From Candidatus Omnitrophota bacterium (GTDB lineage Bacteria > Omnitrophota > Gorgyraeia > 2-01-FULL-45-10), in assembly GCA_041663425.1 (NCBI GenBank), contig JBAYMS010000002.1, forward strand, positions 2,076-66,075: a DNA stretch of 64,000 bases, read 5' to 3'. Positions 33,653-56,262 of this stretch are shown piece by piece; within the stretch, counting starts at the first letter, position 1, and every line of letters starts with the position of its first letter. Position numbers and translations under genes: made by a program. Under the pieces are notes generated by a model. That model searched no databases. It was not told where the DNA came from and worked only from the letters and a program-made list of their open reading frames with translations.

Positions 33653-34294
33653 GTGGAATTTATTAAAAGTTTACTCGATCTCGCAATCCATTTTGATAAG
33701 CACCTGAATGCGATGATCCAGAGCTTCGGGGGCTGGTCCTATCTGGTGCTTTTCGTGATCATTTTCGCAGAAACGGGCCTGGTCGTTACGCCGTTCCTCC
33801 CGGGAGATTCGATGATATTTGCCGTAGGGACATTCGCCGCAATGGGATCGCTGGACGTAGCGTGGCTTTTTGCAGTGCTTGTGAGCGCCGCGATCATCGG
33901 AGACAGCGTAAATTATGCGATCGGAAAATTTATCGGCGAAAAGGCTTTTCACATGAAGAATTCCAAAATATTTAAAAAAGAATACCTCGACAAGACCCAT
34001 AAATTTTATGAAAAATACGGCGGCAAAACTATAATACTGGCGAGATTCGTCCCGATAGTGCGGACGTTTGCGCCGTTCGTCGCCGGCGTAGGCATTATGA
34101 GTTATAGAAAATTCTTTGCCTATAATATTATCGGCGGTATTTTGTGGGTAGCAGTATTCCTCTACGGCGGATATTTTTTCGGTAACATGCCAGTCATAAA
34201 AAATAATTTTTCGATAGCGATATTCGCGGTAATAATACTCTCTATATTACCCATAGGGGTCGAATATTGGAAACACAAAAGAACGAAAAAATAG
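33653..34294 (+). CDS. DedA/SNARE-associated family membrane protein
   Basis: VTPFLPGDSMIFAVG and IARFVPIVRTFAPFVAG DedA signatures; 213 aa. Confidence 0.8.
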   Translation: MEFIKSLLDLAIHFDKHLNAMIQSFGGWSYLVLFVIIFAETGLVVTPFLPGDSMIFAVGTFAAMGSLDVAWLFAVLVSAAIIGDSVNYAIGKFIGEKAFHMKNSKIFKKEYLDKTHKFYEKYGGKTIILARFVPIVRTFAPFVAGVGIMSYRKFFAYNIIGGILWVAVFLYGGYFFGNMPVIKNNFSIAIFAVIILSILPIGVEYWKHKRTKK

Positions 34295-35757
34295 TTTTTC
34301 CGGAAGATCTTAAAGAGCAATTTAAAGATCTTGTGAATTCGCGCTGCGGATTATATTTTAAAGACTACGACCTGAAAGACCTCGAGTTCGCCCTGACAAA
34401 CCGCATAAAAGAACTCGGCCTTGATTCAGCGCATGCTTATTACAACATACTGACATTATCCGAAAAGAAAGAGGATGAATTCAGGGAACTTCTCAATCTT
34501 CTCACCGTAAAGCATACCTACTTTTTCAGGAATGAGCCGCAGTTCAAAGTCCTGAAAGAAAAAATACTCCCTGATCTGATGTCTCGCAAGAAGACTATTC
34601 GTATATGGAGCGCTGGCTGCGCTACCGGCGAAGAGCCGTATTCCATTGCCATGATAATAAAAGATATGTTATCCGCCTATGAAGGATGCAGCGTCGAGAT
34701 AGTTGCTACCGATGTGTCTACGAAAGCCATTGAGAATGCGCAGCGCGGTATTTATGGTGCAAATTCTATGAGGCTCGTTGATGATGAGCATAGAAAAAAG
34801 TATTTTACCGAAGAACACAATCCGTCGCTTGGCCTAAGATATGCGATAAAAGACGCGATAAAAAATATGGTAAATTTCGCATATTTCAATCTGATGGAAA
34901 ATACGTATCCCGGAGATTTCGATATAATCTTCTGCCGTAACGTCGTTATATATTTCGAACTTAGCACTACCATTTCCGTAATGAATAAATTTGCTGATAG
35001 TCTTAAGGAGGATGGGTATCTGTTTATAGGTTATTCAGAGAGCCTTCAGTTCATATCCGACAAATTTAAGATGGAAAGCCGGGAGGATGCTATTTTTTAT
35101 ACGAAGGCCGGGGATGTCAGGATCTCGTCGTGTGTCGCAGGCTACAAAGGGCCGAAGCCGCGGAAAATGGAAAGCATTATCGAGGAAATCTCCGAAGCTG
35201 AGGTTGAGGCCGGTTCGCAGGAAAAATGGGCTAAAGTAATAACATCGGCTAAGCTTAAAGATATCCTTGTGCAGGCGATCGAAGCTATGTTTTTAAAGAA
35301 ATATCAGGAAGTGCTGAGCCTCGCAGAAGCCGGCCGCCTTATTGATGGGGATGCCGTAGAGTTTTATTATCTGGCCGCCGAGGTCAATTTAAATCAGGGT
35401 CATTTCGCCGATGCTAAAAAGAATCTCGATATAATCCTGGAAAAGAATGCTCTCTTCGCTCCCGCTTACTATCTTTTCGGGTCGCTATTCATAGAAGAGG
35501 GCAGGGCTGAGGATGCGGAAAAGAGTTTCAGGAAGGCTTTATACCTTGATGGCAAGTTCTTGCTGGCACATTTTGGGATAGCCAATATTTACAGGGATTT
35601 AGGCAGGATACACGATGCTATACGCGCATACAGAAATACCCTTAATATTTTGTCAAAATGTAAATCATATGATATAATTGCATACAGTGGCGGTTTTAAC
35701 GCAACGACTCTTGCAAGTGTCTGTAGGAATAACTTGGAGCGTTTAAAAACGGCGTAG
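34267..35757 (+). CDS. cheR: CheR-type chemoreceptor methyltransferase with C-terminal TPR repeats
   Basis: CheR SAM-binding IRIWSAGCATGEEPYSIAMI...CRNVVIYF; TPR-like repeats in the last 150 aa; 496 aa. Confidence 0.8.
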   Translation: METQKNEKIVFPEDLKEQFKDLVNSRCGLYFKDYDLKDLEFALTNRIKELGLDSAHAYYNILTLSEKKEDEFRELLNLLTVKHTYFFRNEPQFKVLKEKILPDLMSRKKTIRIWSAGCATGEEPYSIAMIIKDMLSAYEGCSVEIVATDVSTKAIENAQRGIYGANSMRLVDDEHRKKYFTEEHNPSLGLRYAIKDAIKNMVNFAYFNLMENTYPGDFDIIFCRNVVIYFELSTTISVMNKFADSLKEDGYLFIGYSESLQFISDKFKMESREDAIFYTKAGDVRISSCVAGYKGPKPRKMESIIEEISEAEVEAGSQEKWAKVITSAKLKDILVQAIEAMFLKKYQEVLSLAEAGRLIDGDAVEFYYLAAEVNLNQGHFADAKKNLDIILEKNALFAPAYYLFGSLFIEEGRAEDAEKSFRKALYLDGKFLLAHFGIANIYRDLGRIHDAIRAYRNTLNILSKCKSYDIIAYSGGFNATTLASVCRNNLERLKTA

Positions 35758-35779
35758 CATCCTTAAATCAAGGAGCCTA

Positions 35780-36244
35780 GTGCACTTACTGACATTCCTT
35801 TTGGCGGAGAAGGAATACGCTGTTGACGTTGACAGCGTCCGCGAAGTAAGGCGTATAAAAACTATCATACCCATACCGAAGACTTTAGACTTCGTTGAAG
35901 GTGTCGTAAGTCTTCGCGGCAATGTCATTCCCATAATAAATTTACGCAAAAAGCTCGGCCTTCCCGGCCTGCAAAAATCAAATCTCAACAGAGTCCTGAT
36001 GGTGGAATTGAATGACCATATTATCGGCATTGCTGTCGATAATGTTATTGGGGTTGTGTCTGTTGATGGATTAAATATCGAATCTCCCGACGAACTTCTT
36101 AAAGATGCCGCATATCTTAAAGGTGTTGCTAAATCCGGTCACCGTCTTATCCTGATAATAGATATTATGAGCTTATTGTCGGGCGAAGAGACTCTGGGGA
36201 TTTCTGATATACACAAAAAGGTTGAGATCCGAAAGAAGGCCTGA
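35780..36244 (+). CDS. cheW: CheW coupling protein
   Basis: 154 aa CheW-like domain (EYAVDVDSVREV...LRGNVIPIINL). Confidence 0.8.
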   Translation: MHLLTFLLAEKEYAVDVDSVREVRRIKTIIPIPKTLDFVEGVVSLRGNVIPIINLRKKLGLPGLQKSNLNRVLMVELNDHIIGIAVDNVIGVVSVDGLNIESPDELLKDAAYLKGVAKSGHRLILIIDIMSLLSGEETLGISDIHKKVEIRKKA

Positions 36245-36249
36245 AATTT

Positions 36250-36768
36250 ATGGATGAGCAGGATAAAGTAATAATAGAGGTCAGCGAAGAAGAATTTGAG
36301 GCCATGAGAGAGGTGAAGAAGACCGTCAGAGTGCTTTCTTTCTCTCTGGGCAGTGAGCATTATTGTATTGATATAACTGATGCCAAGGAGGTTTTCCGGC
36401 CTTCCGCCATTACCAAGGTGCCGAATGCCCCGGCTTTCATTTTCGGGATCACCAATATTCACGGTGAAATAATACCTTTGATAGATATACGGTATTTTCT
36501 GGGCTTAGCCTCAAAGGAAGGGCTTGGCTCAACAAAGGTTATAGTTACTGATGTTATGGCAAGCCATGTAGGTGTTGTTGTCGATGAAGTTAATGAGGCC
36601 ATTGACATCGAGGAGGATTCGATACAGCCGCCGCTTGCTACTATCAAAGGCTCGCTTGCTGTTTTTACAAAAGGCCAGGTCCAGATCGGGAACGATATAA
36701 TAGTTTTGTTGGATCTGAAAAAAATACTGAATTGCAAAGAAATGGAGAACTTAAAAAAAGGAGTATGA
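36250..36768 (+). CDS. cheW: CheW-like coupling protein (second copy)
   Basis: 172 aa; acidic N-terminal tail plus CheW domain ([12 protein letters not shown]...[11 protein letters not shown]). Confidence 0.75.
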
Positions 36769-36769
36769 G

Positions 36770-38650
36770 ATGGAGACCGCAGGACAAGTCAGGATTAGCA
36801 TAAAGACTAAGTTGATTGTTATCTTTTTAGCCATAGCGCTTATACCGCTTGCGATTACAGGCTACATAGGGTATTCATCGGCTAAGGCGGCCCTGGAGAA
36901 AAGTTCCTTTGAAAGCCTGAAAGCTATATCGGCCGCTAAGGAAGAATCTCTTATAAGATATATCAGGACTAAAGTAAAGGTCACAAAAGGTTTTGCGAGT
37001 GATATTTATATACGCGAAACGCTTGAAAAGATAGAGCAAGGTGGTCCAGACGCTTTAAGACTTGCGGGTGAACTCACAAAATATCTTGCCGAAGAAAAAG
37101 AACCTGTTGATGGCGATATAGACGTAACGCATGTAATCAATACGGATGGCAAAATAATAGCGTCCACAATAGCTGCGCGCATAGGCGAAGATGCTTCCCA
37201 GACAGATTATTTTACTGAAGGTAAAAAGGGGCTGTATATCAAAGATGCGTATCTTTCTACCGATAACGGTAAAGAGTCTTTCTCTGTTGCCATTCCCCTG
37301 AAAAAGAGAGATGGTGGCCAGATTGTGGGCGTGCTGGTCAACCGTTATCAAACAACGGAACTTAACAAAATACTTTCCGACAGGGAGGGTATGGGCGAGA
37401 CGGGAGAGACTTATATAGTTAATAAAGATAGTTATATGATCACCGCTTCAAAATTTATAAAAGATGCATTTCTTAAACAGAAGGTTGACACCGATCCTGT
37501 CAAATTATACCAATCCGACAAACAGACTATGTCGGGTGTTTATAAAGATTATCGTGGCCATGTAACCTTAGGTGCTTCACATGGAGCTATTTTTGACAAA
37601 GAGTTTGGTCTTGGATGGGTGGTCTTGGCAGAGATAGATGTAAATGAGGCGTTTGGCCCGGTAGCGAAGCTGCGAAGCATGATACTTTTAATGATACTGC
37701 TTGTTGCAATCACTATTACTTTTGTGGCTATCGTTATATCAGAGACTATGGTCAGACCAATAATTACATTGACTCAAGCAGCTAATAAAGCGGCTGGAGG
37801 CGATCTTACGGTAGCTATGTCGATAAAAAGTAATGATGAGATAGGGGTGCTGGCGAATAGCTTCAACATGATGGTCAGGAATTTAAGCGAAATATTATCA
37901 AAAGCTAAAGAAGCTGTCGGCCAGGTGACTTCCGGTTCAACCGAGATACTGTCTGCGAGCCAACAGCAGGCTTCCAGCGCACGCGAACAGTCGTCGGCTA
38001 TAAATGAAACCACTTCTGCGGCTGCAGAGTTGTCAAAATCAGCTGAGCAGATAGGTGATAGTATAAAACAGGTTTCTCAGTCCGCTATTCATGCTTTGGC
38101 GGGCATGAGCAAGATTAAAGATGCTATAGGCAAGACGAGCGACAAGATAACCTCCTTGAGTGAAAAATCTCAGCAGATAGGCAAGATCACGGAGCTTATA
38201 AATGATGTTGCCGATCAGACAAATCTTCTTGCCGTTAACGCTGCTATAGAAGCGGCAAGGGCAGGTGAACACGGGCGGGGATTTACAGTGGTTGCGGATG
38301 AGATACGCAAACTCGCCGACTCGACTTCTAAATCGACCAAAGACATTACTGCTCTGATCGAGATCATCCAGCACGAGATGTCAAATGCGATAATGGCAAT
38401 GGAGCAAAGCATAATAAGTGTGAATGAGGAAGTTGCGTTATCCCAGGAATCGGCGGATAGCGCTAAAGAGATAGCGATGGGGGCCGCGCAGCAGGTGGCT
38501 GGTTCAAGACAGATCGCAGAGGCCATGACGAGCATAAACGAGGCTATGAAACAGATCTCTGAGGGTGCCAGCCAGGCTCAGGCAGCCGCCAAGCAGCTGA
38601 ATCTTTTAGCCAGCGAGGTCAGAGCGATCACCATTAAATTTAAGGTATAA
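36770..38650 (+). CDS. Methyl-accepting chemotaxis protein with periplasmic Cache-like sensor and HAMP
   Basis: 626 aa; TM1, periplasmic domain of about 270 aa, TM2, HAMP, MCP signalling domain ([31 protein letters not shown]). Confidence 0.85.
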
Positions 38651-38657
38651 AACTTAG

Positions 38658-40757
38658 ATGGTATTTGATAGGTCAAAATTTATCGGGCAATTTAAAGCGG
38701 AAACGCATGAGCATCTCCAGAACCTGACGAACGGACTTCTGAAGCTTGAAAAAATCCCTTCTGATCAGAAGCTGCTGGAAGCCATGATGCGCGAAGCTCA
38801 TACCATTAAAGGTTCGGCGACTATGATGGGGTATAACCGCATTGCTGACATAGCGCATGGCATGGAAGACGGCCTGGAGAAAGCGCTTAAAGGAAAGGCT
38901 GCGTTAAAGAAGAAGCATTTTGATATTCTGCTTAAATGCGTGGACGCGATAGCGCCTCTTCTTGAGGATAAGATAACCTGGGAAGATAAGGGTGTGGCTA
39001 AACCGTATCCTGATAGTCTTTGTGAGGACATGGCGGCCGCGTTTTCTGAAAAAGACGACGCTGCTGAAAAAGCCGTAGACAAGCAAAAGACCGAGCAGGC
39101 AACGCCTCCAATATTTAAGCTTAGCGAAGAAAGCATGCGGGTAGACATAAATAAGCTCGACAACCTTATGAACCTTGCCGGTGAGCTGACTGTCTCGAAG
39201 GTTCGGCTCAATGAACTTATCAGGAACCTTACAAATAAAGTTGAATCCTGCGTTTCGGATGCAGGCGTGAATACCCTTATTAAGGAATTAAATAAGGCAG
39301 ATGATAATATATCGCTGGTAGCATCCAATATCCAGGACGAGGTAATGAAGGTCAGGATGGTGCCGGTCTCTTATCTGTTTAATCTTTTTCCACGCGCTAT
39401 GAGGGAGTTGTCCAATGAGTCGGGTAAGGATGTTGATATAAGTATAGAGGGTGAAGATACGCATATAGATAAAGCGATCATAGATGAGATGAAAGATCCT
39501 ATTATGCATATACTGAGAAACTCCATCGACCATGGGATAGAATCCTCGGATGAGCGGGTGAATAAAAATAAACCGCGCGAAGGTAAGATAGGGCTTAAAG
39601 CTTATCAGGTGGGTGGCCAGGTAGTGATTGAAGTGTCGGATGACGGTAGGGGTATTGATCCTGCTAAGGTGAAAGAAATAATCGCAGCAAATAAACTTAT
39701 CGATAAAGATAAACTGGACAATATGACAGATGATCAAATATGCCAGCTTATATTTTTACCCGGTTTTACAACTAAGGGTTATGCGACCGAAATATCCGGA
39801 CGGGGGGTCGGACTAGATGTTGTCCGTGATAGGGTGATAAAACTTAAGGGGTCTGTAGAGGTAGCATCATGCCGCGATATCGGAACTAAAGTCATGATGA
39901 AGCTGCCGCTTACGCTCGCTATCACTGAATGTCTTCTTGTCGGCTCCGGAAGCGATAGATTTGCCATGCCTATAGATTCTGTCGTCGAGACGATACGTAT
40001 TGAGCTTGGACAGATAAAAAGCGTAGAGACTCGGGAAGCTATTACGGTCAGGGGCCAGATAATGCCCCTTGTAAGGCTGTCCGATATATTTAATCTTCCT
40101 GCAAAAGGTATTGTGGAGCGTAAATATTCCTCTGTTGTGGTAGTGCAGGTCCTGGAAAAGAGAGCAGCTCTTATGGTGGATGCCCTGTTAGGGCGTCTTG
40201 ATATAGTACGTAAGGCCTTAGGCGACCCTCTTAAAAATATAAAATATATCTCAGGCGCAACTGTTCTTGGAGATGGTAAAGTCGTCCTCATACTTGATAT
40301 TCCATCGATCATCGATTCGTTCGAGTCGGGTGCTGCTGTAAAGCGGCCTTTCGCGCCTCAAAAGAAATCCGAACAGTCTGAAAAGAAGAGACGGAAGACG
40401 ATACTTCTGGCGGAGGATGCTATGACTACAGCGATGCTTGAGAAGAGTATTCTGGAATCATCAGGATTTTCTGTGGTTATAGCAAAGGATGGACAGGAGG
40501 CTATAGAAAAAGCCATGCAGGAAAAATTTGACCTTATAATTACCGACGTGTTAATGCCGCGAATGGACGGGTTTGAGCTAACAGCCGCGCTTCGAAAGGA
40601 GAAAGTTTATAAAGATGCGCCTATTATAATAGTAACTACGCGGGAGAGCGATGCGGATAAGAGGCGCGGACTTGAAGCTGGGGCCGATGCTTATATATTA
40701 AAGAGCGAATTTACTTCAGAAGGTTTGCTGGATACTATCGAAAGACTGATAGGCTGA
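38658..40757 (+). CDS. cheA: CheA histidine kinase with C-terminal receiver domain (CheA-REC hybrid)
   Basis: Hpt (HTIKGSATMMG), dimerisation, HATPase (GRGVGLDVV), CheW-like domain, then REC (TILLAEDAMTTAM...ITDVLMPRMDG); 699 aa. Confidence 0.9.
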   Translation: MVFDRSKFIGQFKAETHEHLQNLTNGLLKLEKIPSDQKLLEAMMREAHTIKGSATMMGYNRIADIAHGMEDGLEKALKGKAALKKKHFDILLKCVDAIAPLLEDKITWEDKGVAKPYPDSLCEDMAAAFSEKDDAAEKAVDKQKTEQATPPIFKLSEESMRVDINKLDNLMNLAGELTVSKVRLNELIRNLTNKVESCVSDAGVNTLIKELNKADDNISLVASNIQDEVMKVRMVPVSYLFNLFPRAMRELSNESGKDVDISIEGEDTHIDKAIIDEMKDPIMHILRNSIDHGIESSDERVNKNKPREGKIGLKAYQVGGQVVIEVSDDGRGIDPAKVKEIIAANKLIDKDKLDNMTDDQICQLIFLPGFTTKGYATEISGRGVGLDVVRDRVIKLKGSVEVASCRDIGTKVMMKLPLTLAITECLLVGSGSDRFAMPIDSVVETIRIELGQIKSVETREAITVRGQIMPLVRLSDIFNLPAKGIVERKYSSVVVVQVLEKRAALMVDALLGRLDIVRKALGDPLKNIKYISGATVLGDGKVVLILDIPSIIDSFESGAAVKRPFAPQKKSEQSEKKRRKTILLAEDAMTTAMLEKSILESSGFSVVIAKDGQEAIEKAMQEKFDLIITDVLMPRMDGFELTAALRKEKVYKDAPIIIVTTRESDADKRRGLEAGADAYILKSEFTSEGLLDTIERLIG

Positions 40758-40779
40758 AAACTTACGAGAGGGGTAGTCT

Positions 40780-41151: not shown

Positions 41152-41160
41152 CGGAGAGAA

Positions 41161-42168: not shown

Positions 42169-42193
42169 AAGGCCGCAAAAATAAAGGTATAAT

Positions 42194-46345: not shown

Positions 46346-46373
46346 TATACATATATATATTATATGTAATATT

Positions 46374-46402: not shown

Positions 46403-46410
46403 TAACACTA

Positions 46411-47585: not shown

Positions 47586-47591
47586 TTCTTA

Positions 47592-47969: not shown

Positions 47970-47975
47970 ATAGCG

Positions 47976-49673
47976 ATGGTAAAGGTAAGGAAATCGCTGG
48001 GCGAGAGCCTTGTGGAAGAAGGGGTTATAACGGCTGAACAGCTTAAGCAGGCGCAGGCCGAAGAGAAAAGTACAGGCCAGCGTCTTCGGAAAGCTTTGGT
48101 TAAGTTGGGGTTCATTGCCGAAGATGACCTCGTATCATTTTTAAGCGATAAACTTAATGTGCCGCGCATAGAGCTTAATAATTATCTGATAGATCAAAAG
48201 GTAATAGAGCTTGTTCCCGAAGAGCTTGCGCGAAAGTATGAGCTGATACCTGTGCTCAAGATCGGCAATAGACTTACCTGCGCAATGGTTGATCCATGGA
48301 ATGTGTTTGCCTTAGACGAGATACGCTCCAAGACGGGGCTTATTATAGAGCCTTCAGTAGCTACTGAAGCAGAAATAAAAAAAGCTATTAACGAAATTTA
48401 TGGTGCAAAGCAGGGAACGATAGAAGAGCTGATAAAGTCGATAGATGAAGAAAAAATCACAGAAGCTACCGGCGGTAAAGAGCTGAATGTTAAGAAATTG
48501 CAGGGCATAGTAGAAGAGCCAACCGTTATAAAGCTGGTCAATCTTCTGATCATGCAGGCGGTAAAAGAGGGTGCGAGCGATATTCATATCGAGCCCGAAG
48601 AAAACACTCTCAGGATCAGGTTCAGGGTAGATGGTATTTTGCATGAAATAAGCGCTCCGCCCAAGCACCTCCAGTCCGCTATAATATCGAGGATCAAGAT
48701 AATGGCGTCTCTCGACATCTCTGAGCGCCGCATTCCGCAGGATGGCAGATTCACGATAAATACAGGAGGCAAACAGATAGATGCGCGTGTGTCGTGTGTC
48801 CCGACCATCTATGGTGAAAATGTGGTGCTTCGTCTGCTGAATACAGCCAGCGCTTTATTAACTCTTGAGGAGCTGGGCTTCTCCACGAATATACTTGAAA
48901 AATATAACCACCTTATCTATAAGCCGCACGGGATCATACTTGTCACAGGGCCTACCGGCAGTGGAAAGACGACGACGCTTTACGCTTCTTTGGATAAGAT
49001 AAACAGTCCGGAAAAAAATATCATAACGATAGAGGATCCCGTAGAATATAAGCTCCCCGGGGTGCGCCAGATACAGGTGGATACTAAGGTGAACCTTACA
49101 TTTGCCAACGGGCTGCGGTCTATTCTTCGCCAGGATCCGGATATTGTAATGGTGGGAGAAATACGTGATATTGAGACCGCTGAAATAGCTATCCAGGCCG
49201 CGCTTACCGGGCACCTTGTTTTTTCGACGCTTCATACAAATGATGCGCCGGGAGCTATCACTCGTCTCATAGATATGGGCATGGAGCCGTTTCTTGTTTC
49301 CTCTTCGGTTATTGCCGTAATAGCCCAAAGACTGGTGCGTAAAATATGTCCCAGATGCAAAGAGCAGTATACGCCTACAAAAACAGAGCTTAAGGATATA
49401 GGATTGGAAAGCTCGGGTAAGGTGAGTTTCTATAAAGGAAAAGGCTGCCCTGATTGTATGAATACCGGATATAAAGGAAGGATAAGTATATACGAAATGA
49501 TGCTTCCGGACGATAAGATCCGCGATGCTATTATATCTAAGACTGCGACAAGCGAAATAAAGAAGCGGGCGATAGAGGGTGGGATGATCACGCTTATGCA
49601 GGATGGTATAGAAAAAGTCGAAGCGGGAATTACCACGATAGAAGAAGTGTTAAGGGTGACTCAGGAGGATTAA
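47976..49673 (+). CDS. Type II secretion / type IV pilus assembly ATPase (GspE/PilB family) with N-terminal T2SSE_N domain
   Basis: 565 aa; Walker A GPTGSGKTTT; tetracysteine CPRC...CPDC; N-terminal GSPII_E_N-like domain. Confidence 0.9.
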   Translation: MVKVRKSLGESLVEEGVITAEQLKQAQAEEKSTGQRLRKALVKLGFIAEDDLVSFLSDKLNVPRIELNNYLIDQKVIELVPEELARKYELIPVLKIGNRLTCAMVDPWNVFALDEIRSKTGLIIEPSVATEAEIKKAINEIYGAKQGTIEELIKSIDEEKITEATGGKELNVKKLQGIVEEPTVIKLVNLLIMQAVKEGASDIHIEPEENTLRIRFRVDGILHEISAPPKHLQSAIISRIKIMASLDISERRIPQDGRFTINTGGKQIDARVSCVPTIYGENVVLRLLNTASALLTLEELGFSTNILEKYNHLIYKPHGIILVTGPTGSGKTTTLYASLDKINSPEKNIITIEDPVEYKLPGVRQIQVDTKVNLTFANGLRSILRQDPDIVMVGEIRDIETAEIAIQAALTGHLVFSTLHTNDAPGAITRLIDMGMEPFLVSSSVIAVIAQRLVRKICPRCKEQYTPTKTELKDIGLESSGKVSFYKGKGCPDCMNTGYKGRISIYEMMLPDDKIRDAIISKTATSEIKKRAIEGGMITLMQDGIEKVEAGITTIEEVLRVTQED

Positions 49674-50884
49674 TGGCGTTATACATGTACAGGGCTCGAG
49701 ATGGTGCCGGCAAGATAGTCAAGGGCACAATGGATGCCGCTACAAAGACTGAGCTTATTGATAAGCTTCAGAAGATGGGCTATATGGCGACCAATGTTAA
49801 AGAGACCTCTAGCGCTGAAATGACGTCAATATTTGATAGATTTCAAAGGATACGATCAGACGATATGCTTATGTTCTATATCCAGTTGTCAAATATGATA
49901 ACTGCAGGCATAACCATATTGATGAGCTTGTCTACGCTTGGGAAGCAGGCTGAGAACAAGGCCCTGAAACAGGCCATAGGCAGTGTTTCAAGGCAAGTTG
50001 AGTCAGGTTCGAGCCTTTCGCAGGCATTTGCTACACAGCCGCGCATCTTCAGCAAATTATTTGTAAATATGATAAAGGCAGGTGAGGCCAGCGGCAATCT
50101 AGACGCCGTTCTCATGAGATATGCTACATTCTTCGAGAATCAGGAAGATCTTAAGCAGAAGATAAGAGGGGCGCTTTTTTATCCCATAATACTCTTGTGT
50201 GCAGGTATTGCCGTAACCCTATTAATAGTTACCTTTGTAATCCCCCAGTTTGCCGAGATATATCTTAAAGCAGGTATAAAGCTGCCTTTGCCGACGCTGA
50301 TAGTGTATAACGCAGGCCTCTTCATTAAAAATTTTTGGTATGTGATCATTATCTGCATAATTGCTGTTTTGGTTGGGTTGAAATTTTATTTCGCCACAGT
50401 TAAGGGGCAGACATTTTACGACAGGATGAAGCTCAGCCTGCCGATAATAGGACCCTTATACCGTAAGGTAGCAATGGCAAGATTCGCACGGACTCTTGCC
50501 ACTCTTTTAGGCAGCGGTGTGCCGATACTGCAGTCGCTTGACATAGTTAAAGATATCGTCGGCAATGTGATCCTGGCCGCTGCTATTACAAATATCAGAG
50601 GATATGTAGAGAAGGGCGAGCGCATGTCCGAGCCTATGAGGATAAGCGGGGAGTTTCCTCCTGACATAGTGCAGATGGTGTCGGTCGGAGAAGAGACGGG
50701 CAATATGGACGGTATGCTTAATAAGACCGCAGATTTTTACGATATGACGGTAGGCTATGCCGTAAAAAAGCTGACGACCGTTATAGAGCCGTTATTTCTT
50801 GTAGTGTTGGGAGTTATGGTAGGATTTATTATGGCATCTATGTTGATGCCGATTTTTGACATGGTGAAGACGTTAAAGCATTAA
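49673..50884 (+). CDS. GspF/PilC platform protein
   Basis: 403 aa; two T2SSF repeats; 3 TM helices. Confidence 0.85.
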   Translation: MALYMYRARDGAGKIVKGTMDAATKTELIDKLQKMGYMATNVKETSSAEMTSIFDRFQRIRSDDMLMFYIQLSNMITAGITILMSLSTLGKQAENKALKQAIGSVSRQVESGSSLSQAFATQPRIFSKLFVNMIKAGEASGNLDAVLMRYATFFENQEDLKQKIRGALFYPIILLCAGIAVTLLIVTFVIPQFAEIYLKAGIKLPLPTLIVYNAGLFIKNFWYVIIICIIAVLVGLKFYFATVKGQTFYDRMKLSLPIIGPLYRKVAMARFARTLATLLGSGVPILQSLDIVKDIVGNVILAAAITNIRGYVEKGERMSEPMRISGEFPPDIVQMVSVGEETGNMDGMLNKTADFYDMTVGYAVKKLTTVIEPLFLVVLGVMVGFIMASMLMPIFDMVKTLKH

Positions 50885-50955
50885 AATCCTTCGGCTTGGC
50901 TCAGGATTTTGTCCCGAACATGGCCGGGGATAAAATGAAGAAAGGGGGATGTAAG

Positions 50956-51390
50956 ATGTTTAAGAAAAAAGGTTTTACGATTATAGAGCTGTTGATAGTA
51001 ATAGCAGTAATAGGCATACTTGTTGGGATAGCGCTTCCGCGGTTTCGAGGTATGCAGGATGAGGGTAACATAGCCAAAGCTAAAGCTGAGCTGAAGACAC
51101 TCCAGACGGCCATAGAGAGCTATTATTCTCATAATAGCAATGTTTATCCGACGGCGCTTGCAAATATGACAACGGCTACTCCGCAAATAATAGCCGTAGT
51201 GCCTAATGACCCGTTTAACGGGACTACCGCTTATGGATACAACCATACCGGTAATTATTACGCAATTTACTCTGTAGGGCCGGCCAATGATGGAACGGCT
51301 ACTGTAGATTCTGACGGAGCTATAACTGAGACCGACGGGGCAAGTTGTATCTATGTTACGAACGGGACGAGCATTGATGCCCAGCCGTAA
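50956..51390 (+). CDS. Major pseudopilin/pilin (GspG/PilA-like, prepilin N-methylation motif)
   Basis: Start at MFKKKGFTIIELLIVIAVIGIL (G-F-T-x-x-E) after an AAAGGGGGATG RBS; 144 aa; one Cys. Confidence 0.75.
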   Translation: MFKKKGFTIIELLIVIAVIGILVGIALPRFRGMQDEGNIAKAKAELKTLQTAIESYYSHNSNVYPTALANMTTATPQIIAVVPNDPFNGTTAYGYNHTGNYYAIYSVGPANDGTATVDSDGAITETDGASCIYVTNGTSIDAQP

Positions 51391-51752
51391 TGATTGAGAA
51401 GAAAGGTTTTACACTGCTCGAAGTTCTTCTGGCGGTTGTTTTTCTGGCAGCCGGCTCGATCTTTCTTTTGCAGGCGATCGGCTCAGGTCTTTTTGCCGGC
51501 AATATTAATGAGACGGAAATAGTCGCTATAAATTTAGCCCAGGAGAAAATGGAGTTTGTGCGGAATACCGCTTATGCCAGCATTGCCAGTGAGGCGAGAG
51601 CTGACGTAAGCGGTTTTCCTGCATATCAGCGTGAAGTAGTGGTCACCGATGCGACTTTGCAGCACAATATTAAAAAAGTAGTTGTGAAGGTCTATTATAC
51701 TATAAAAAATACCGAGCTTAATAAATCCCTGACAACCTATGTTGCGATCTGA
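51390..51752 (+). CDS. Minor pseudopilin (GspI/PilV-like)
   Basis: KKGFTLLEVLLAVVFLAAGS prepilin leader; 120 aa. Confidence 0.65.
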   Translation: MIEKKGFTLLEVLLAVVFLAAGSIFLLQAIGSGLFAGNINETEIVAINLAQEKMEFVRNTAYASIASEARADVSGFPAYQREVVVTDATLQHNIKKVVVKVYYTIKNTELNKSLTTYVAI

Positions 51753-52254
51753 TAAAAATAAAATCGGATTAACATTGATCGAGTTGATAATTGCACTGCT
51801 TCTCGTTTCGTTTGTTCTGGTTGCGGTGTGGTCGGTCTATAGCGCAGGCTCTAAGGTGTTTTATGGACAAGAGACGCGGGGAGGTGTAGTGCCTGAGGTT
51901 GAGCGTGCTCTGTATGAATTTGGAAGCGATTTACGCCGGGCTGCATCTGTTACGGATGCGCAGAAAACATCGCTTACTTTTACGTCGGGTGCCAGTTCCA
52001 GCGGTAAAAATGAAACGATGAAATATGTGTGGGATGACATTTCCAGCCATTCCTTAAACAAGATATCTACGGTGACGAAACCTGTAGTCCATTCTGTTTC
52101 GGACCTTATATTTACTTATTATGATTCAAACAACAACCTTCTTTCTTCTCCCGTGACACCCTCAGATGTGCGGGTGGTTGTTATCACTATGACGGTTACG
52201 ACTAAAAACGAAAGTTTTAAGATCCAAAATGCTGCCCGTATCAGGTGCCTTTGA
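51739..52254 (+). CDS. Minor pseudopilin (GspJ/PilW-like)
   Basis: IGLTLIELIIALLLVSFVLVAVW prepilin-type N-terminus; 171 aa. Confidence 0.6.
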   Translation: MLRSDKNKIGLTLIELIIALLLVSFVLVAVWSVYSAGSKVFYGQETRGGVVPEVERALYEFGSDLRRAASVTDAQKTSLTFTSGASSSGKNETMKYVWDDISSHSLNKISTVTKPVVHSVSDLIFTYYDSNNNLLSSPVTPSDVRVVVITMTVTTKNESFKIQNAARIRCL

Positions 52255-53692
52255 TATGAATAATAAACGCGGATTCATACTGCTTCTTACCTTTGTATTG
52301 ATGGTGGTGCTGACTTTTCTGGTCGGAGCACTGATGTATATGGTCAATGCTTCTACAAAAGATGCGATATATCAAATTGAAGACTATGGGATGCTGAACG
52401 TAGCGGATGCAGGTGTGCAATACGTGAATAAGATGCTAGACGACGGTAATTTTTATCATCAAAACCTGAAGGCAGATTTGAGAGGAGCTACAGCTAGCGG
52501 CACAGCGTCGCATACAAGCAGGATGTGTTATGTGGATGGCAGCTATTCGACAGTGGCTAACAATACAGCGATCCTTCAGGGATTTGATTCTAATTATGCT
52601 GGTATAAGTATTGATGCTGTTTATATTGTTGCGAAGGCAGGCCGGCAGACGGGAGGTTCAGGAGCAACGCTTCAGGTGTCTTACTCTATTAATGGAGTAA
52701 CGGGAGCTACTAAATTGACCCAGGCTTTGCCTAATTCCACTAATTTAGTGGAATATACCAAGTACGTTTCGGGCTTAACGTGGTCTGATATTCTTAATGG
52801 TAATTTTACTCTTACCGCCACTCGCACGGCAGGGAACAGAAATATTTATCTGGACGCTCTTTATCTGCGCGTGCGATATTCTGCGCATAGCCCAGAGGTA
52901 AATTTTTCGGATTCATTTAGTTCTGTAGGATTTTTTACCGGGACAATGTCGTCGGAGGATAGAAAGGTTCATCTTAACACCGCGTCTCAGAGCCTGTTAT
53001 CTTATCTTATGCAAGAGCTGGGGATATCCAGCTCTGCAGCCAATACGCTTGCGGACAATATAATTACTTACAGAACTGTAAAACCTTTTGATTCTGTAGA
53101 GGAATTGCAGCAGGTTGAAGGCATGACTACGACGAATTACAACCTGATGCATGATTATGTCACAGTTTATACATTTATAAATCCATACGTCCAGAGAACA
53201 ACGGGAGCCCGCGCGCCTATAAATATAAATGCAGCCTCTTTACAAGTTCTCAAGGCTGTATTCGATCCTTTGGGGCTCGGCACCGGCGATGCGGCTAGTT
53301 TAGCCAACGATATAGTAAATTCCAGGCCTACTTATTTTACCTGTTTTTATTCGGCGGATTCAACGGTAACGACCGATTTTTATGACTTTGTAAGAGCGAG
53401 AACTTACCTTACTGCAGCGGAGCAGAATAAAGTGCTCGATAATGCGGACGCATCTTTGATTGTGCCTGTGTCGGGAGCTGCCGCTTTTAATTGTGCGACC
53501 ACAGAATTTTCGTATGGGACAAGCGTTTTTGAAATAAATCTCTTGTCTTACGCGCCTTCAAGCCCGCGTATGATTCGTATACAAGAAATGCTGGGGGGCG
53601 ACAAGAACCGTAAGCTTACGACCTACTACGGCGATCCGGCCCCGGCCGGATATAGAAGAGAGACTTTCGAGGTCGAAGAGTTTTTTATGTAA
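52229..53692 (+). CDS. GspK/PilX-like large minor pseudopilin
   Basis: 487 aa; N-terminal KRGFILLLTFVLMVVLTFLV lacks Glu+5 (GspK hallmark); HhH-like segments (SAANTLADNIITYR, GDAASLANDIVNSR). Confidence 0.55.
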   Translation: MLPVSGAFDMNNKRGFILLLTFVLMVVLTFLVGALMYMVNASTKDAIYQIEDYGMLNVADAGVQYVNKMLDDGNFYHQNLKADLRGATASGTASHTSRMCYVDGSYSTVANNTAILQGFDSNYAGISIDAVYIVAKAGRQTGGSGATLQVSYSINGVTGATKLTQALPNSTNLVEYTKYVSGLTWSDILNGNFTLTATRTAGNRNIYLDALYLRVRYSAHSPEVNFSDSFSSVGFFTGTMSSEDRKVHLNTASQSLLSYLMQELGISSSAANTLADNIITYRTVKPFDSVEELQQVEGMTTTNYNLMHDYVTVYTFINPYVQRTTGARAPININAASLQVLKAVFDPLGLGTGDAASLANDIVNSRPTYFTCFYSADSTVTTDFYDFVRARTYLTAAEQNKVLDNADASLIVPVSGAAAFNCATTEFSYGTSVFEINLLSYAPSSPRMIRIQEMLGGDKNRKLTTYYGDPAPAGYRRETFEVEEFFM

Positions 53693-53711
53693 AATATGGT
53701 ATACTACACTT

Positions 53712-55310
53712 ATGGATTTTAAAACTATATTTAAAAAAGAATATGTGGTGGGCCTAGACATAGGATCTTCATCTGTGAAGACGGCTGTATTCATTGAGAA
53801 AGAGGACGGGCCTTTCCTTTTGAGGTCTGAACTTAAAGAGATCAAAAGAACGAATGACCCGGCTTCTGATGAAGCAGGGCTGGCCGTGGCCCTGCGGTTC
53901 CTGTTCAGGGATATCGATACTAAAAAATCGGTCGTAATTGCCAGCGTCAATTGCACCAACACCGCCGTAAAAAAGATAACAACACCTTATATGCCGAAGT
54001 CTGAGCTGCGCGAAGGCATAAGGCTGCAGGCAAAAAGTTACTTTCCTTTTCCTATTGATGAATCCATGCTTGATTTTGAGATCACTGGTGATATTGTGGA
54101 TAAAGGGACCAGGAAGTATGAGATCCTGGTCGCCGCTTGCCCTATAGACACTACGAAAAAATATTTATCCGCTCTGAGCAATGCCGGGATCAAACCTTCG
54201 TCAGTTATCTCATCCTCCTATGCTCTTTGTAAAGTGGCCGAGATGGTGAATAAAGAGGAAGGTTATACTAATTGTCTTATAGATATAGGACAGACGCATA
54301 CTGAGCTTGTAATATTAAAAGGTAAGCAGCTTATGTTTACGCGCAAGATACCGGTTTCAGGAAGCGATTTCACGAGCGCAATGACTGGCGCCGTTATTAC
54401 CGATAAGGGCAAAGCGCAGCTTACATTCGATGAAGCCGAGAAGATAAAATGCAGCGCAGGTATTTTATCCGGTGCGGAAACTGCGGGACCAGATGCTAAA
54501 ATTTCTGTGTCGCAGATATCTGCTATGCTGCGCGCCCCTGAGGAAAATTTTACGAGTGAGGTAGAGAGGTGCATAGATTATTACAGGGAAGATTCGGCCG
54601 GCGGTAAAGTCGATTCTATAATTTTGTTTGGCGGAGGCGCGGCGCTTAATGGGCTGACTAAGATATTGTCGGAAGAGCTTGGTATAGATGTCAGGCTTGG
54701 CGATTCTTTTCACGGTATTAAAGCCTCGAAAGAAGTGCTCGAATCTGGAAGCCGTCTTTCTCACAGACTCAATCTGGCTATTGGGGCAGCTTTCAGTAAA
54801 GCAGAAGGTATAAACCTTCTCCCATCTGAAATAAAAGATGAAAAAAAGATATTGATAAAGAGAAGTACTCTTGAGGCGGCAGGGACAGCTGTTCTGCTGA
54901 TCCTCGTATTGCTTTATGCCGGAATGACCATAAAGCTGACCAACTTCCAGAAGAGGATATCCGCGGCAAGGATGGAATTGTCGACCCTTGAGCCGCAAAT
55001 TAAAAAAGCTAAAACAGTCCTTTTGGGCAACCAAATACTTTCGAACGAACCTCAATGGGAAGACGTATTCGTGGAACTATCCAATCTCATGCCTGACAAT
55101 ATACACCTTACCGGTTTTCATATGAAGGACGATATGATAACGTTGAGAGGCGTTGTCGCGGCGCAGGACGGGGAGCAGGTTCTTTCGGATTTCATACTTA
55201 CTCTTGAGAGCGGCCTATTCGATAGGGTGCGGCTTGTTAATACTAAAAAGATAGGTGAGGACGGCGGGACTGAATTTGAGCTTAACTGCCGGGTAGATTA
55301 TGAAAAATAG
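53712..55310 (+). CDS. GspL-like / PilM-PilN fusion assembly protein
   Basis: 532 aa; N-terminal actin-like PilM fold (VGLDIGSSSVKTAVF), one TM (AAGTAVLLILVLLYAGMTI), PilN-like periplasmic C-terminus. Confidence 0.7.
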   Translation: MDFKTIFKKEYVVGLDIGSSSVKTAVFIEKEDGPFLLRSELKEIKRTNDPASDEAGLAVALRFLFRDIDTKKSVVIASVNCTNTAVKKITTPYMPKSELREGIRLQAKSYFPFPIDESMLDFEITGDIVDKGTRKYEILVAACPIDTTKKYLSALSNAGIKPSSVISSSYALCKVAEMVNKEEGYTNCLIDIGQTHTELVILKGKQLMFTRKIPVSGSDFTSAMTGAVITDKGKAQLTFDEAEKIKCSAGILSGAETAGPDAKISVSQISAMLRAPEENFTSEVERCIDYYREDSAGGKVDSIILFGGGAALNGLTKILSEELGIDVRLGDSFHGIKASKEVLESGSRLSHRLNLAIGAAFSKAEGINLLPSEIKDEKKILIKRSTLEAAGTAVLLILVLLYAGMTIKLTNFQKRISAARMELSTLEPQIKKAKTVLLGNQILSNEPQWEDVFVELSNLMPDNIHLTGFHMKDDMITLRGVVAAQDGEQVLSDFILTLESGLFDRVRLVNTKKIGEDGGTEFELNCRVDYEK

Positions 55311-55809
55311 AAATATTATAATTGCGGCTATGGTAGTTTTTTCTTTGTTTTTAATATACATAATTCTCTATAGGCCGTTAATAAAGAAGCTAAAGATGAA
55401 ATCTGCTGAATATGCCGCGATCGAAAATAAAATCAATTCAGCGCAGCGCCTTATCAATTCTTCAAAGGCGATGAAGAGCGATATTGTAATGATCACTGAA
55501 AAAGAGGTTTCGCTGGCTATTGATGAATTGACTAAACACGGCAAGAGTCTTGGCGTAGAATTCCGTGCTATCAAACCCAGAGAGATTATAAAATCGGATC
55601 CTGTAAATCAGTATAAGATGCTGCCTGTTGATATAGAGATAGAGGCTTCGGACAAGCAATTGGCCGATTTTTTAGGATCTTTAGATGAGCTGAAGAAGAG
55701 CTTAATAAAAATATATAGTCTTGATATAAAAGCGGATGACATGAACAAGGCAATGTTAAAAGCGAAAGTAGTTATAGGTATATATTTTTCATCGGAAAGC
55801 GGTGCTTAA
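55300..55809 (+). CDS. GspM/PilO-like inner-membrane assembly protein
   Basis: 169 aa; N-terminal TM plus coiled-coil; position after the PilMN-like gene. Confidence 0.5.
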   Translation: MKNRNIIIAAMVVFSLFLIYIILYRPLIKKLKMKSAEYAAIENKINSAQRLINSSKAMKSDIVMITEKEVSLAIDELTKHGKSLGVEFRAIKPREIIKSDPVNQYKMLPVDIEIEASDKQLADFLGSLDELKKSLIKIYSLDIKADDMNKAMLKAKVVIGIYFSSESGA

Positions 55810-56262
55810 ATGGATCTGCGGCAAATAGCTCAAAATAAAAAGGCTGTTATTCTTATAGCGCTGGTTAGTCTGGCGCTATTAAGCCTTCTTTATGGTATTT
55901 TCTCCAGGCCTGGCCGCCGGAATACCGCTCCGGTAAGAAGCATTGTAACTGCTTTTAATAAAAATAAAGTTTCTGCATTGCCGGAATCTTCAACTCCGGC
56001 ATTTAGGCGTGCTAAGCGGACGCAGTTCCGGTCGTGGAAGAGGAGCCCGTTCGTTCCTAAGGGTGTGCCCGGAACTCCGTACTCTAAATTTGCCCTTAAT
56101 GGCATACTGGCGAGCGGTAAAGAATTGAAGGCTATGATCGGTGATGCGATAGTCGGGAAGGGTGATAAAATAAATGCGAATACAACGGTGGTTGAAGTAA
56201 TGAAAGACAAAGTCATCCTTAACGATGGGACTAAAAATTTTGAATTGAAGCTAGAGCAGTGA
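55810..56262 (+). CDS. GspC/PilP-like protein
   Basis: 150 aa; N-terminal TM; C-terminal beta-domain pattern (GDAIVGKGDKINANTTVVEVMKDKVILNDGTKNFELKL). Confidence 0.4.
   Translation: MDLRQIAQNKKAVILIALVSLALLSLLYGIFSRPGRRNTAPVRSIVTAFNKNKVSALPESSTPAFRRAKRTQFRSWKRSPFVPKGVPGTPYSKFALNGILASGKELKAMIGDAIVGKGDKINANTTVVEVMKDKVILNDGTKNFELKLEQ

Follow-up and report, generated by a model that had tools for sequence, protein, structure and literature searches.

Chemosensory pathways that control type IV pili, such as Pil-Chp, Pix/Tax, Frz and Che4, are well known. Here we examine a 64,000-nucleotide stretch of DNA from a Candidatus Omnitrophota bacterium (contig JBAYMS010000002.1, positions 2,076 to 66,075; hereafter the window), in which a chemosensory (Che) module is followed by genes for sensor kinases, receivers and a filament machine that resembles type IVa pili and type II secretion systems (T2SSs). 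The cluster comprises 20 genes on the forward strand and begins with the CheR open reading frame (ORF) at position 34267 and ends with the stop codon of the final filament gene at position 56262, with intergenic distances of -26 to +71 nt. We propose, with a probability of roughly 0.55, that a Che pathway with an architecture of the ACF type (named for "alternative cellular function"), together with classical sensor kinases, phosphorylates single-domain receivers that would gate a PilB-like ATPase.

The ACF-type Frz system of Myxococcus xanthus resembles this locus in several respects. FrzF is a CheR with TPR repeats (CheR-TPR), FrzE is a CheA with a fused receiver (CheA-REC), adaptation proceeds by methylation, and the outputs are single or tandem receivers. 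Furthermore, Frz is a non-flagellar system that governs motility dependent on type IV pili. However, its receptor FrzCD is cytoplasmic, whereas the methyl-accepting chemotaxis protein (MCP) of the window has a periplasmic dCache domain. Frz also acts on the MglA/RomR polarity module and is not encoded beside pilB, whereas the receiver genes examined here abut the gene for an ATPase that we propose as their target. The Wsp system of Pseudomonas, which is likewise of the ACF type, has a nearly equal core consisting of an MCP, two CheW proteins, the CheR-TPR protein WspC, the CheA-REC protein WspE and the CheB protein WspF (PMC3447774). Its output is the REC-GGDEF cyclase WspR, in contrast to the single-domain receivers encoded here by the filament ATPase, and the cluster contains no GGDEF, EAL or HD-GYP gene.

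The Pil-Chp system of Pseudomonas aeruginosa, which represents the type IV pilus (Tfp) class, is likewise a Che-like pathway with CheR and CheB homologues, and its two antagonistic single-domain receivers (PilG and PilH) and its control of type IV pilus function may have counterparts here. However, ChpA carries many Hpt domains and PilK lacks TPR repeats, whereas the CheA in the window has one Hpt domain and its MCP is of Tsr-like length. The Pil-Chp genes also do not lie beside pilB, and their outputs pass through cyclic AMP and polar recruitment. Receivers that bind the extension motor PilB directly and alter pilus activity, which is the mechanism we propose for the receiver REC2, are known from the Synechocystis Tax1/Pix system, in which the pilus motor is a binding partner of PixG and PixH (bioRxiv 10.1101/2021.06.11.447907; PMC11181946), and from Xanthomonas. 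In Xanthomonas oryzae, EmvR, a single-domain regulator, attaches to PilB and reduces its ATPase activity (PMC11973254), and DrdR is a further precedent for direct control of PilB by a receiver (PMC13507683). These cases differ from the present one in that PixG has a PATAN domain and the Pix sensor is a photoreceptor, and in that EmvR and DrdR are encoded by orphan genes away from pilB, whereas the receiver-ATPase gene pair described here is conserved across phyla. Relative to all of these systems, what is new is the physical fusion of an ACF-architecture pathway to motor genes, a family of receivers that appears to pair with its ATPase across phyla, and the setting in Omnitrophota, whose pili are thought to be central to a host-dependent life.

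Gene identities were established by Pfam and NCBIfam profile searches in which every larger ORF of the window was scanned. A first-pass annotation, whose ORF coordinates are those used here, had described the 20 genes as a single co-oriented supercluster, and the number of genes, their common orientation and the domains claimed for them are all borne out. This applies to the Che module (CheR-TPR, two CheW, a Cache-MCP, CheA-REC, CheY and CheB), to a sensor-less histidine kinase core with two stand-alone receivers (here called HK256, REC1 and REC2), and to the filament genes (the ATPase, GspF/PilC, a major pilin, three minor pilins including a GspK-like protein, a PilM-PilN fusion, PilO and a PilP-like protein). 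Its statements that the Che module lacks CheZ, CheC, CheD and flagellar genes, and that neither the secretin nor the prepilin peptidase lies in the window, also hold in the scans of the 64-kb window. The notion of one supercluster stands as far as orientation and tight spacing are concerned, but the cluster is divisible, as HK256, REC1, REC2 and the filament genes also occur without Che genes.

The case for a connection between the Che module and the filament machine is built on 13 CheA sequences with known gene context, which were collected by a metagenome scan and from gene neighborhoods (orthologues 59-71% identical). In a neighbor-joining (NJ) tree of these 13 proteins, the CheA of the window forms a clade with those of loci L105, L104, L106, L084 and L086 in 488 of 500 bootstraps. 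Every clade member with enough downstream DNA (five of five) continues, across gaps of a few nucleotides, into two to four receiver genes, the ATPase gene and the filament genes. By comparison, none of the seven CheA loci outside the clade continues into filament genes, and AsmA-like genes follow in five of them. The linkage within the clade holds across three gene orders, in which a dCache kinase lies either before CheR or after CheB. In L084, L086 and L104, the operon joined to the filament genes has the order CheR-TPR, CheW, CheW, dCache-MCP, CheA-REC, CheB, and the dCache kinase and one more receiver are encoded upstream of CheR; the contig of L106 begins just before CheA. In these four loci, three or four receiver genes alone separate CheB from the ATPase, again with gaps of a few nucleotides. 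The closest CheA relative (L105, 71% identical) has the series CheA-CheY-CheB, followed by a Che-terminal receiver, an orthologue of the large kinase HK1383 and the end of the contig. Taken together, these gene orders and the CheA tree argue that the Che-filament linkage is not due to chance.

The loci outside the clade offer a glimpse of what related Che operons might otherwise do. Five of them (L083, L097, L099, L100 and the P0003 locus) end with CheB and a receiver; the next gene is AsmA-like, and one for a HAMP-HD-GYP protein often follows. The other two (L087 and L098) have CheA in other contexts. The AsmA/YhdP-like gene that follows these sister Che operons encodes about 810 aa, and the HAMP-HD-GYP protein is a phosphodiesterase. 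This hints that sister operons may serve a second output in Omnitrophota, one related to the envelope or to cyclic di-GMP (c-di-GMP). We also noted small genes of the 23S_rRNA_IVP family, with a weak match to bAvd, within the Che operons of L097 (12170-12541), L098 (12161-12511) and L100 (7152-7502), where they are inserted in the CheA-CheB interval or between two CheW genes.

A second comparison was anchored on the ATPase, with all 20 proteins of the window compared by tblastn with 80 loci that carry ATPase relatives. The best relatives among species-representative genomes are from Omnitrophota, and the order of the ATPase gene, GspF/PilC, pilin, minor pilins, GspK-like, PilM-PilN, PilO and GspC-like genes is kept in Omnitrophota as well as in some Planctomycetia-labelled bins. 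Directly upstream of the ATPase gene lies its most conserved neighbor, a REC2-like receiver gene. In 27 of the 48 ATPase copies with 50% or more identity to that of the window, less than 200 nt separates the ATPase gene from the end of an upstream REC2-like gene, and in 8 more such a gene lies within 1.2 kb (35 of 48). Among copies below 50% identity, the corresponding numbers are 5 of 46 and 2 more (7 of 46). The pairing is present in Omnitrophota, Planctomycetota-labelled bins, Elusimicrobia, KSB1, Deferribacteres and others, and where REC2 keeps its place directly before the ATPase gene across phyla, the gaps are 3-30 nt. REC2 orthologues are 65-77% identical to REC2 and are conserved to the same degree as the ATPase; they lie directly 5' of the ATPase gene in L004-L014, L084, L086, L101, L103 and L104. 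Upstream of the REC2-like gene there are often genes for HK256-like or PAS kinases and for one to three further receivers. In four loci from Cytophagia- or Deferribacteres-labelled bins (L023, L026, L028 and L032), two tandem ATPase genes are each preceded by a REC2-like receiver gene of their own, and a third receiver gene and GspF come next.

The loci with the ATPases most similar to that of the window are those in which the filament genes stand apart from a Che operon. L101 (82% identical ATPase) has orthologues of HK256 (60%), REC1 (64%) and REC2 (77%) followed by the filament genes, with no Che gene in the 10 kb upstream. In L102 (80%), receivers and a PAS-kinase-PilZ fusion are encoded upstream and there is no Che operon within 10 kb, and in L103 (78%) only REC2 lies upstream, likewise with no Che operon within 10 kb. 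L003 (78%) shows neither a receiver nor a Che operon in the sole 1.9 kb at hand. The L102 locus carries, near the ATPase gene, a 900-aa CheB-CheR-PAS fusion (1-1447), a PAS-kinase-GGDEF fusion (1460-3565) and the PAS-kinase-PilZ fusion (7296-9266), and it appears that such c-di-GMP-linked signaling proteins stand in for the Che operon there. The occurrence of HK256, REC1 and REC2 beside filament genes that lack Che neighbors indicates that these three genes are part of the filament module. On this comparative basis, the cluster appears to consist of two modules, one made up of HK256, REC1, REC2, the ATPase and the filament genes, and the other of the genes from CheR-TPR to CheB plus HK1383.

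This divisibility raises the possibility that the two modules are merely neighbors. The ATPase would then be under the control of HK256, and perhaps HK1383, through REC1 and REC2, and the Che pathway would act through CheY or the CheA receiver elsewhere, for example on envelope or c-di-GMP functions. Consistent with this explanation, the HK256-REC1-REC2-ATPase-filament unit is whole in L101 without Che genes, and filament clusters without Che genes are also found in L003, L102, L103, L005-L007 and L010. Sister Che operons of equal CheA identity (66-69%) adjoin the AsmA-like and HD-GYP genes, and the window lacks the usual Che-terminal receiver (RECa, see below) and has a CheY of a distinct clade in its place. 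However, the adjacency holds in five of five members of a well-supported CheA clade and in none of seven loci outside it, it survives rearrangement of the accompanying kinase gene, only receivers lie between CheB and the ATPase in the four loci noted above, and the association recurs in another phylum. Specifically, a Candidatus Auribacterota metagenome-assembled genome (MAG) carries the order CheA-CheB-CheW-REC-CheR(TPR)-ATPase-GspF (L057), with a full-length CheR-TPR and an ATPase that is 47% identical; this would be an independent Che-ATPase junction in an unrelated phylum. We therefore regard uncoupled neighbors as a rather unlikely explanation. A stronger version, in which the absence of Che genes from the closest relatives would make the link accidental, was dropped on the evidence of the CheA-anchored loci and the CheA tree.

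Our proposal that the Che pathway acts on the filament machine nonetheless has to be weighed against a series of observations that speak against it. The closest ATPase relatives (78-82%) have no neighboring Che operon, L003 lacks even the receiver, and the ATPase tree pairs the window with the Che-less L101 in 200 of 200 bootstraps. The ATPase tree thus does not mirror the CheA tree, which means that Che genes were lost or moved in some lineages, or were joined to filament genes more than once. L084 and L086, as well as L104 and L106, are close pairs, and the clade therefore amounts to effectively three independent lineages, which are also the three arrangements of the accompanying kinase. The trees are NJ trees of few sequences from MAGs and metagenome contigs, the evidence is comparative throughout, and bin labels may be wrong. 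RECa also terminates the sister Che operons that lead to AsmA-like and HD-GYP genes, and the window lacks RECa whereas its closest relative L105 keeps it. Finally, promoter-like hexamers lie immediately 5' of the HK1383, HK256 and pilin genes, and internal promoters are therefore possible. The earlier suggestion that the Che pathway controls the adjacent filament system is consequently retained in a qualified form: the linkage withstood the CheA-clade comparison, but the filament module also occurs without Che.

The receivers themselves provide further clues. REC1 (47181..47585, +; 134 aa, Response_reg 88 bits) and REC2 (47592..47969, +; 125 aa, Response_reg 95.6 bits) are single-domain receivers whose translations retain the acidic pocket, the phospho-acceptor Asp and the conserved Thr and Lys. 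The end of the REC2 gene is 6 nt from the ATPase gene. REC1 orthologues (52-64% identical) precede REC2 in L084, L086, L101 and L104. In an NJ tree of 78 single-domain receivers from the loci, with 200 bootstraps, groups were recovered for REC1 (200/200), for the window CheY with two CheY proteins of L089 (196/200), for the receivers encoded upstream of CheR (183/200) and for RECa, the Che-terminal receivers (168/200); the ATPase-adjacent REC2 clade was recovered in 66/200. Identity between RECa and the REC2 clade is 56%, compared with 46% for other ATPase-adjacent receivers and at most 37% for the remaining groups, and REC2 is the group nearest to RECa in every one of 500 column resamplings. 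Both also carry the motif LPK[MI]DGYKVC...TARA around the phospho-acceptor. An exclusive clade of RECa and REC2 appears in only 9 of 200 NJ bootstraps and was rejected, which is a further point against our proposal. The usual output receiver of these Che operons thus belongs to the same family as the putative ATPase partner, which fits a shared target. Because RECa is also found in the AsmA-linked operons, membership in the REC2 family is no proof that the ATPase is the target. RECa appears to have been lost from the window.

Another explanation for REC1 and REC2 is that they serve as phosphate sinks or phosphorelay intermediates, with the true output elsewhere, such as transcription of pilin genes. 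Multiple single-domain receivers of Che-like systems are often sinks, as has been proposed for PilH (PMC11656802), and the number of receivers ahead of the ATPase varies from 1 to 4 among the loci. However, Pfam searches find no Hpt protein or DNA-binding regulator among the cluster genes, and the constancy with which a REC2 orthologue holds the position before the ATPase across phyla, with such short gaps, is a pattern typical of interacting partners. We judge a role as sinks or relay intermediates to be decidedly unlikely, although some of the receivers may act in this way.

Two kinases are encoded between the Che operon and REC1. HK1383 (42194..46345, +) is a membrane sensor kinase of 1383 aa with an N-terminus of multiple transmembrane segments, dCache_1, HAMP, about four PAS domains, HisKA and HATPase, as recognized by Pfam. 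The first-pass annotation had correctly named it a multi-PAS histidine kinase but had overlooked its membrane-bound nature and its dCache_1 and HAMP domains. Its orthologue in L105 likewise follows the Che operon (50% identical over 313 aa), and shorter dCache-HAMP kinases are encoded upstream of CheR in L084, L086 and L104. HK1383 therefore seems to belong with the Che module. HK256 (46411..47181, +) is a sensor-less, cytoplasmic HisKA and HATPase core of 256 aa by Pfam. Its orthologue in the Che-less L101 occupies an equal position, and HK256-like genes are located upstream of the receivers and the ATPase in L008, L013, L018 and L022.

The Che module begins with a CheR methyltransferase of 496 aa that carries a C-terminal TPR region (34267..35757, +; Pfam CheR 208 bits, CheR_N). 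Its gene has a TTG start and overlaps the 3' end of the upstream DedA gene, and the TPR families (TPR_8, TPR_2, TPR_16 and others) match residues 365-464. Orthologues 51-59% identical are encoded first in the Che operons of L083, L084, L086, L087 and L104. Two CheW proteins follow, one of 154 aa (35780..36244, +; Pfam CheW 118.5 bits) and one of 172 aa (36250..36768, +; 112.1 bits), and then a transmembrane chemoreceptor with Pfam dCache_1, HAMP and MCPsignal domains (36770..38650, +). When the periplasmic part of this MCP (residues 35-300) is scanned alone, dCache_1 scores 59.1 bits against a cut-off of 45; its cytoplasmic part aligns without gaps to residues 219-510 of E. coli Tsr, which corresponds to the Tsr-like (36H) length. 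The hybrid CheA (38658..40757, +) consists of Hpt, dimerization (H-kinase_dim), HATPase_c, CheW and C-terminal Response_reg domains by Pfam. Its only Hpt domain spans residues 8-98, and its linker of about 60 residues leaves no space for a P2 domain. Between CheA and CheB lies a CheY-like single-domain receiver of 123 aa (40780..41151, +; Response_reg 81 bits), which is 71% identical to the product of the gene at the equal position in L105. CheB (41161..42168, +) joins a receiver at its N-terminus to a methylesterase domain (Response_reg; CheB_methylest 202 bits) and scores 333.8 bits with the NCBIfam CheB model, for which the cut-off is 293.

The NCBIfam matches for CheA, CheB, CheR and CheW are generic rather than class-specific, and the Che class is judged here from architecture, with class definitions drawn largely from two secondary sources (PMC3447774; bioRxiv 10.1101/2022.05.07.491037). 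CheR-TPR clusters have been assigned to ACF and often have kinase-containing outputs, and 20 CheR-TPR clusters with single-domain receivers are on the list in the same study (PMC3447774). A CheA with a C-terminal REC domain is an architecture tied to ACF/F3 (bioRxiv 10.1101/2022.05.07.491037). The window has both CheA-REC and CheR-TPR, and it encodes no flagellar, CheC, CheD, CheX, CheZ or CheV proteins in 64 kb. ACF systems often, but not always, have a multidomain response regulator as output; the outputs here are single-domain receivers with classical kinases encoded alongside, and relatives L087 and L101 contain REC-HisKA-HATPase hybrids. Of the features expected for the Tfp class, genomic association with type IV pilus genes is found in the CheA clade. 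The multi-Hpt kinase of the ChpA type is not. As for a pair of CheY-like outputs (single-domain or PATAN-REC), two single-domain receivers are encoded before the ATPase and a third (CheY) inside the Che operon, with no PATAN domain. Judged by architecture, the Che module appears to be ACF-like and non-flagellar. The first-pass annotation had treated CheR-TPR and CheA-REC as non-flagellar hallmarks of systems such as Frz, Pix and Chp. The non-flagellar, ACF-type part of that statement stands, but CheR-TPR marks the Frz/Wsp type and not Pix/Chp, CheA with its single Hpt domain is not of the ChpA type, and the MCP is of Tsr-like length.

That length and the presence of a single-domain CheY are also the two features that would be expected if the module were an ordinary flagellar chemotaxis system located beside pilus genes by accident. 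However, the lack of flagellar and auxiliary Che genes in the window, the CheR-TPR and CheA-REC architectures (PMC3447774; bioRxiv 10.1101/2022.05.07.491037) and a CheA without a P2 domain all argue otherwise, and the main genome surveys of Omnitrophota are silent on flagella and chemotaxis (PMC10066038; bioRxiv 10.64898/2026.06.07.730766). A flagellar role is extremely improbable, and we rejected it on the basis of the missing genes and the architecture of CheR and CheA.

The filament machine combines features of type IVa pili and T2SSs. It shares with them an assembly ATPase, a polytopic platform protein, prepilin-type subunits that carry class III signals, a tip subunit that resembles GspK/PilX and lacks Glu5, a PilM/N/O alignment complex and a PilP/GspC-like protein. 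It differs in its hybrid make-up, with a PilB- and PilM-like core but a gene order and pseudopilins like those of a T2SS, in the fusion of PilM with PilN, in having only three minor subunits, and in that no secretin, peptidase or PilT is encoded in cis in the loci examined. The ATPase (47976..49673, +) is of the PilB/GspE type with an N-terminal MshEN domain (T2SSE 476.6 bits, MshEN 76.6 bits). It falls just under the NCBIfam PilB cut-off (667 vs 675.65) and passes that for GspE (TIGR02533, 664.9 vs 630.25), and it is named GspE by PGAP and PilB by JGI. Against solved structures, it matches the PilB proteins of Geobacter and Myxococcus at 558-563 bits and GspE at 467 bits. Its N-terminus scores 55.8 with the NCBIfam model for the MshE-type c-di-GMP motif (cut-off 38). 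By eye, several canonical MshEN positions are replaced: motif 1 starts with Ser where Arg is canonical, motif 2 has Arg for Gly, and both terminal Gln residues are gone. Binding of c-di-GMP by the ATPase is therefore no more than a possibility.

The platform protein (49673..50884, +) has two T2SSF repeats (204 bits) and scores below the cut-offs of both the NCBIfam GspF model (367.6 bits vs 424) and the PilC equivalog (358 vs 700). The major pilin or pseudopilin of 144 aa (50956..51390, +; N_methyl, T2SSG) has the class III signal KKKG|FTIIE. Its start is at 50956 in a gene call on the identical contig, and the mechanical ORF begins at 50896. It scores 56 with the NCBIfam GspG model (cut-off 88.85), and its matches to solved pilins and GspG are mostly via the N-terminal helix. 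Three minor subunits follow, compared with four in T2SSs. The first (120 aa, G|FTLLE; 51390..51752, +; N_methyl) is weakly GspI/PilV-like (GspI 26.6 bits, cut-off 44.35), the second has 171 aa (G|LTLIE; 51739..52254, +; N_methyl 24.1 bits), and the third is the large GspK/PilX-like pilin of 487 aa without Glu5 (52229..53692, +; HHH_3, T2SSK, T2SSK_1st). The last of these is far below the NCBIfam GspK cut-off (29.9 bits vs 130), and its sequence has no match in the PDB.

The PilM-PilN fusion (53712..55310, +; PilM_2 117.6 bits, PilN 31.2 bits) comprises an actin-like cytoplasmic domain, a transmembrane segment and a periplasmic PilN domain. Its PilM_2 match spans the whole profile, it passes the TIGR01175 pilM cut-off (147 bits vs 133), and its solved relatives are the PilM proteins of Thermus, Myxococcus and Pseudomonas; no match to GspL was found in Pfam, NCBIfam or the PDB. 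The PilO-like protein (55300..55809, +; PilO 32 bits, cut-off 22) matches GspM only faintly. The last gene (55810..56262, +) encodes a PilP/GspC-like protein of 150 aa with a weak T2SSC match, in which a disordered linker joins an N-terminal transmembrane helix to a C-terminal beta domain. AlphaFold2 models residues 95-148 with pLDDT >90. The best Foldseek matches are PilP (3jc8_Pa, 2ivw), LspC and the HR domains of GspC and PulC, at high probability and with weak E-values (0.025-1.1), and the alignment with 3oss_C has a TM-score of 0.71 and an rmsd of 2.1 A over 59 columns. This fold cannot tell PilP from GspC. Because it corresponds to the secretin-docking part of such proteins, a secretin is expected, but no GspD or PilQ secretin, PilT or PilD was found either in the window or in the DNA flanking the related loci examined; the secretin may be encoded elsewhere. 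In L005, L006, L007 and L010, the PilP-like gene is directly followed on the same strand by a gene for a lipoprotein of 371-385 aa and then by murI and queDCE.

These mixed signals leave room for the explanation that the machine is a T2SS and that the signaling genes gate secretion. Hydrolases or giant surface proteins that Omnitrophota deploy against prey or hosts could then be the cargo. The genes follow the order of a T2SS, E-F-G-I-J-K-L(PilM-N)-M(PilO)-C, the ATPase passes the GspE cut-off and bears that name in PGAP, the pilin matches T2SSG, the GspK-like subunit lacks Glu5, the last gene has a fold like the GspC HR domain and a PilT gene is absent from the window. Moreover, T2SS or pilus genes occur beside giant genes in Omnitrophota (bioRxiv 10.64898/2026.06.07.730766). 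However, solved structures place the ATPase nearer to PilB than to GspE, and its N-terminus is of the PilB/MshE type. In place of a GspL/GspM platform there is a protein with a full-length match to PilM and a match to PilN, followed by PilO. Although the Pfam cut-offs for T2SSG and T2SSK are passed, those of the NCBIfam Gsp pseudopilin models are all missed, and no secretin gene follows the GspC-like gene in any locus examined. The type IVa core of PilB, PilC, PilM, PilN and PilO is present, with PilB and PilC under their equivalog cut-offs and PilN and PilO over those of Pfam. A phylum-wide survey with TXSScan, in which chemotaxis and flagella are unmentioned, reported type IVa pili in nearly all Omnitrophota and called such clusters type IVa pili (PMC10066038). 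We consider gating of secretion to be somewhat unlikely, and we describe the filament machine as type IVa-pilus-like, with subunits and a gene order that resemble those of a T2SS.

If the Che pathway does act on this machine, the periplasmic dCache domains of the MCP and HK1383 would sense ligands, and CheA (with CheW), HK1383 and/or HK256 would phosphorylate the single-domain receivers. Phosphorylated REC2, perhaps together with REC1, might then bind the assembly ATPase and alter its activity or recruitment, such that filament extension would be switched by chemical signals. CheR-TPR and CheB would reset the response through methylation-based adaptation, and c-di-GMP could be a second input via the MshEN domain. 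Gene content, domain architectures, phospho-acceptor residues, spacing, the REC2-ATPase adjacency and the Che-filament adjacency in one CheA clade can be observed directly, and it is from these that we infer the phosphotransfer routes, the contact between REC2 and the ATPase and the role of the filament, for which adhesion to surfaces or host cells, or twitching, is favored over secretion.

The 20 genes are co-directional and probably co-transcribed. Promoter- or terminator-like sites are no commoner than in shuffled sequence, and the scan for such sites consequently says nothing on operon structure. An Rfam scan of the window found four downstream tRNAs and no regulatory RNA. The flanks are unrelated to the cluster. 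Downstream, there are a convergent lipoprotein gene, the four tRNAs and phosphotransferase system (PTS) genes. The lipoprotein (56272..56676, -; 134 aa, lipobox LSAC, no Pfam family) is a possible accessory of uncertain membership. Its gene lies 9 nt past the last filament gene, and it is found in equal position and orientation after the filament clusters of L101 (65% identical) and L103 (63%). It could be a pilotin-like accessory or merely a syntenic neighbor; a single-sequence structure model of it was unusable (pLDDT 49).

Upstream, a complex-I/Mrp-like membrane module (25905-32802, +) ends about 1.5 kb before the Che operon, with BacA and DedA in between. It encodes two antiporter-type subunits, NuoH-like and NuoK-like proteins, a 20-kDa subunit and a fused 30-kDa/49-kDa subunit with a weak NiFe-hydrogenase match. 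Two paralogous LpxD-like hexapeptide acyltransferases are encoded on either side of an OmpA-LysM gene (21821-22807, +; 24453-25457, -) and a TolC-like OEP gene lies at 16689-18038, which would indicate a diderm envelope with lipid A. Farther upstream are an ORF of 1132 aa (6263-9661, +) with no Pfam family at E <= 0.001 and a protein of 895 aa (11348-14035, -) in which the carbohydrate-binding module CBM_4_9 is the sole recognized domain.

Type IV pili are regarded as key attachment or "symbiosis" organelles of the Omnitrophota, an uncultivated phylum of nanobacteria, and the two phylum-wide surveys consulted describe no sensory control of these pili (PMC10066038; bioRxiv 10.64898/2026.06.07.730766). 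The findings described herein suggest that one lineage of these tiny cells keeps the Che-filament arrangement and that its pilus activity may be switched by chemicals. More tentatively, and with somewhat less than even confidence, we speculate that the locus represents an undescribed ACF-architecture Che subfamily in Omnitrophota whose REC2-family receivers dock on the PilB-like ATPase of a hybrid type IV pilus/T2SS machine. Ultra-small and possibly host-dependent or predatory cells might in this way extend attachment filaments on chemical cues, with methylation-based adaptation, and the receiver-ATPase pair might be an ancient cross-phylum module onto which Che pathways were grafted more than once (in Omnitrophota and Auribacterota). 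If true, a Che pathway wired to a pilus motor would give these cells a concrete route to sense a host or a surface. The receiver-ATPase pair may also point to a simple and widespread form of regulation of type IV filament motors, so far known from isolated cases (PixG/PixH, EmvR and DrdR), and its members would be natural protein pairs for structural study.

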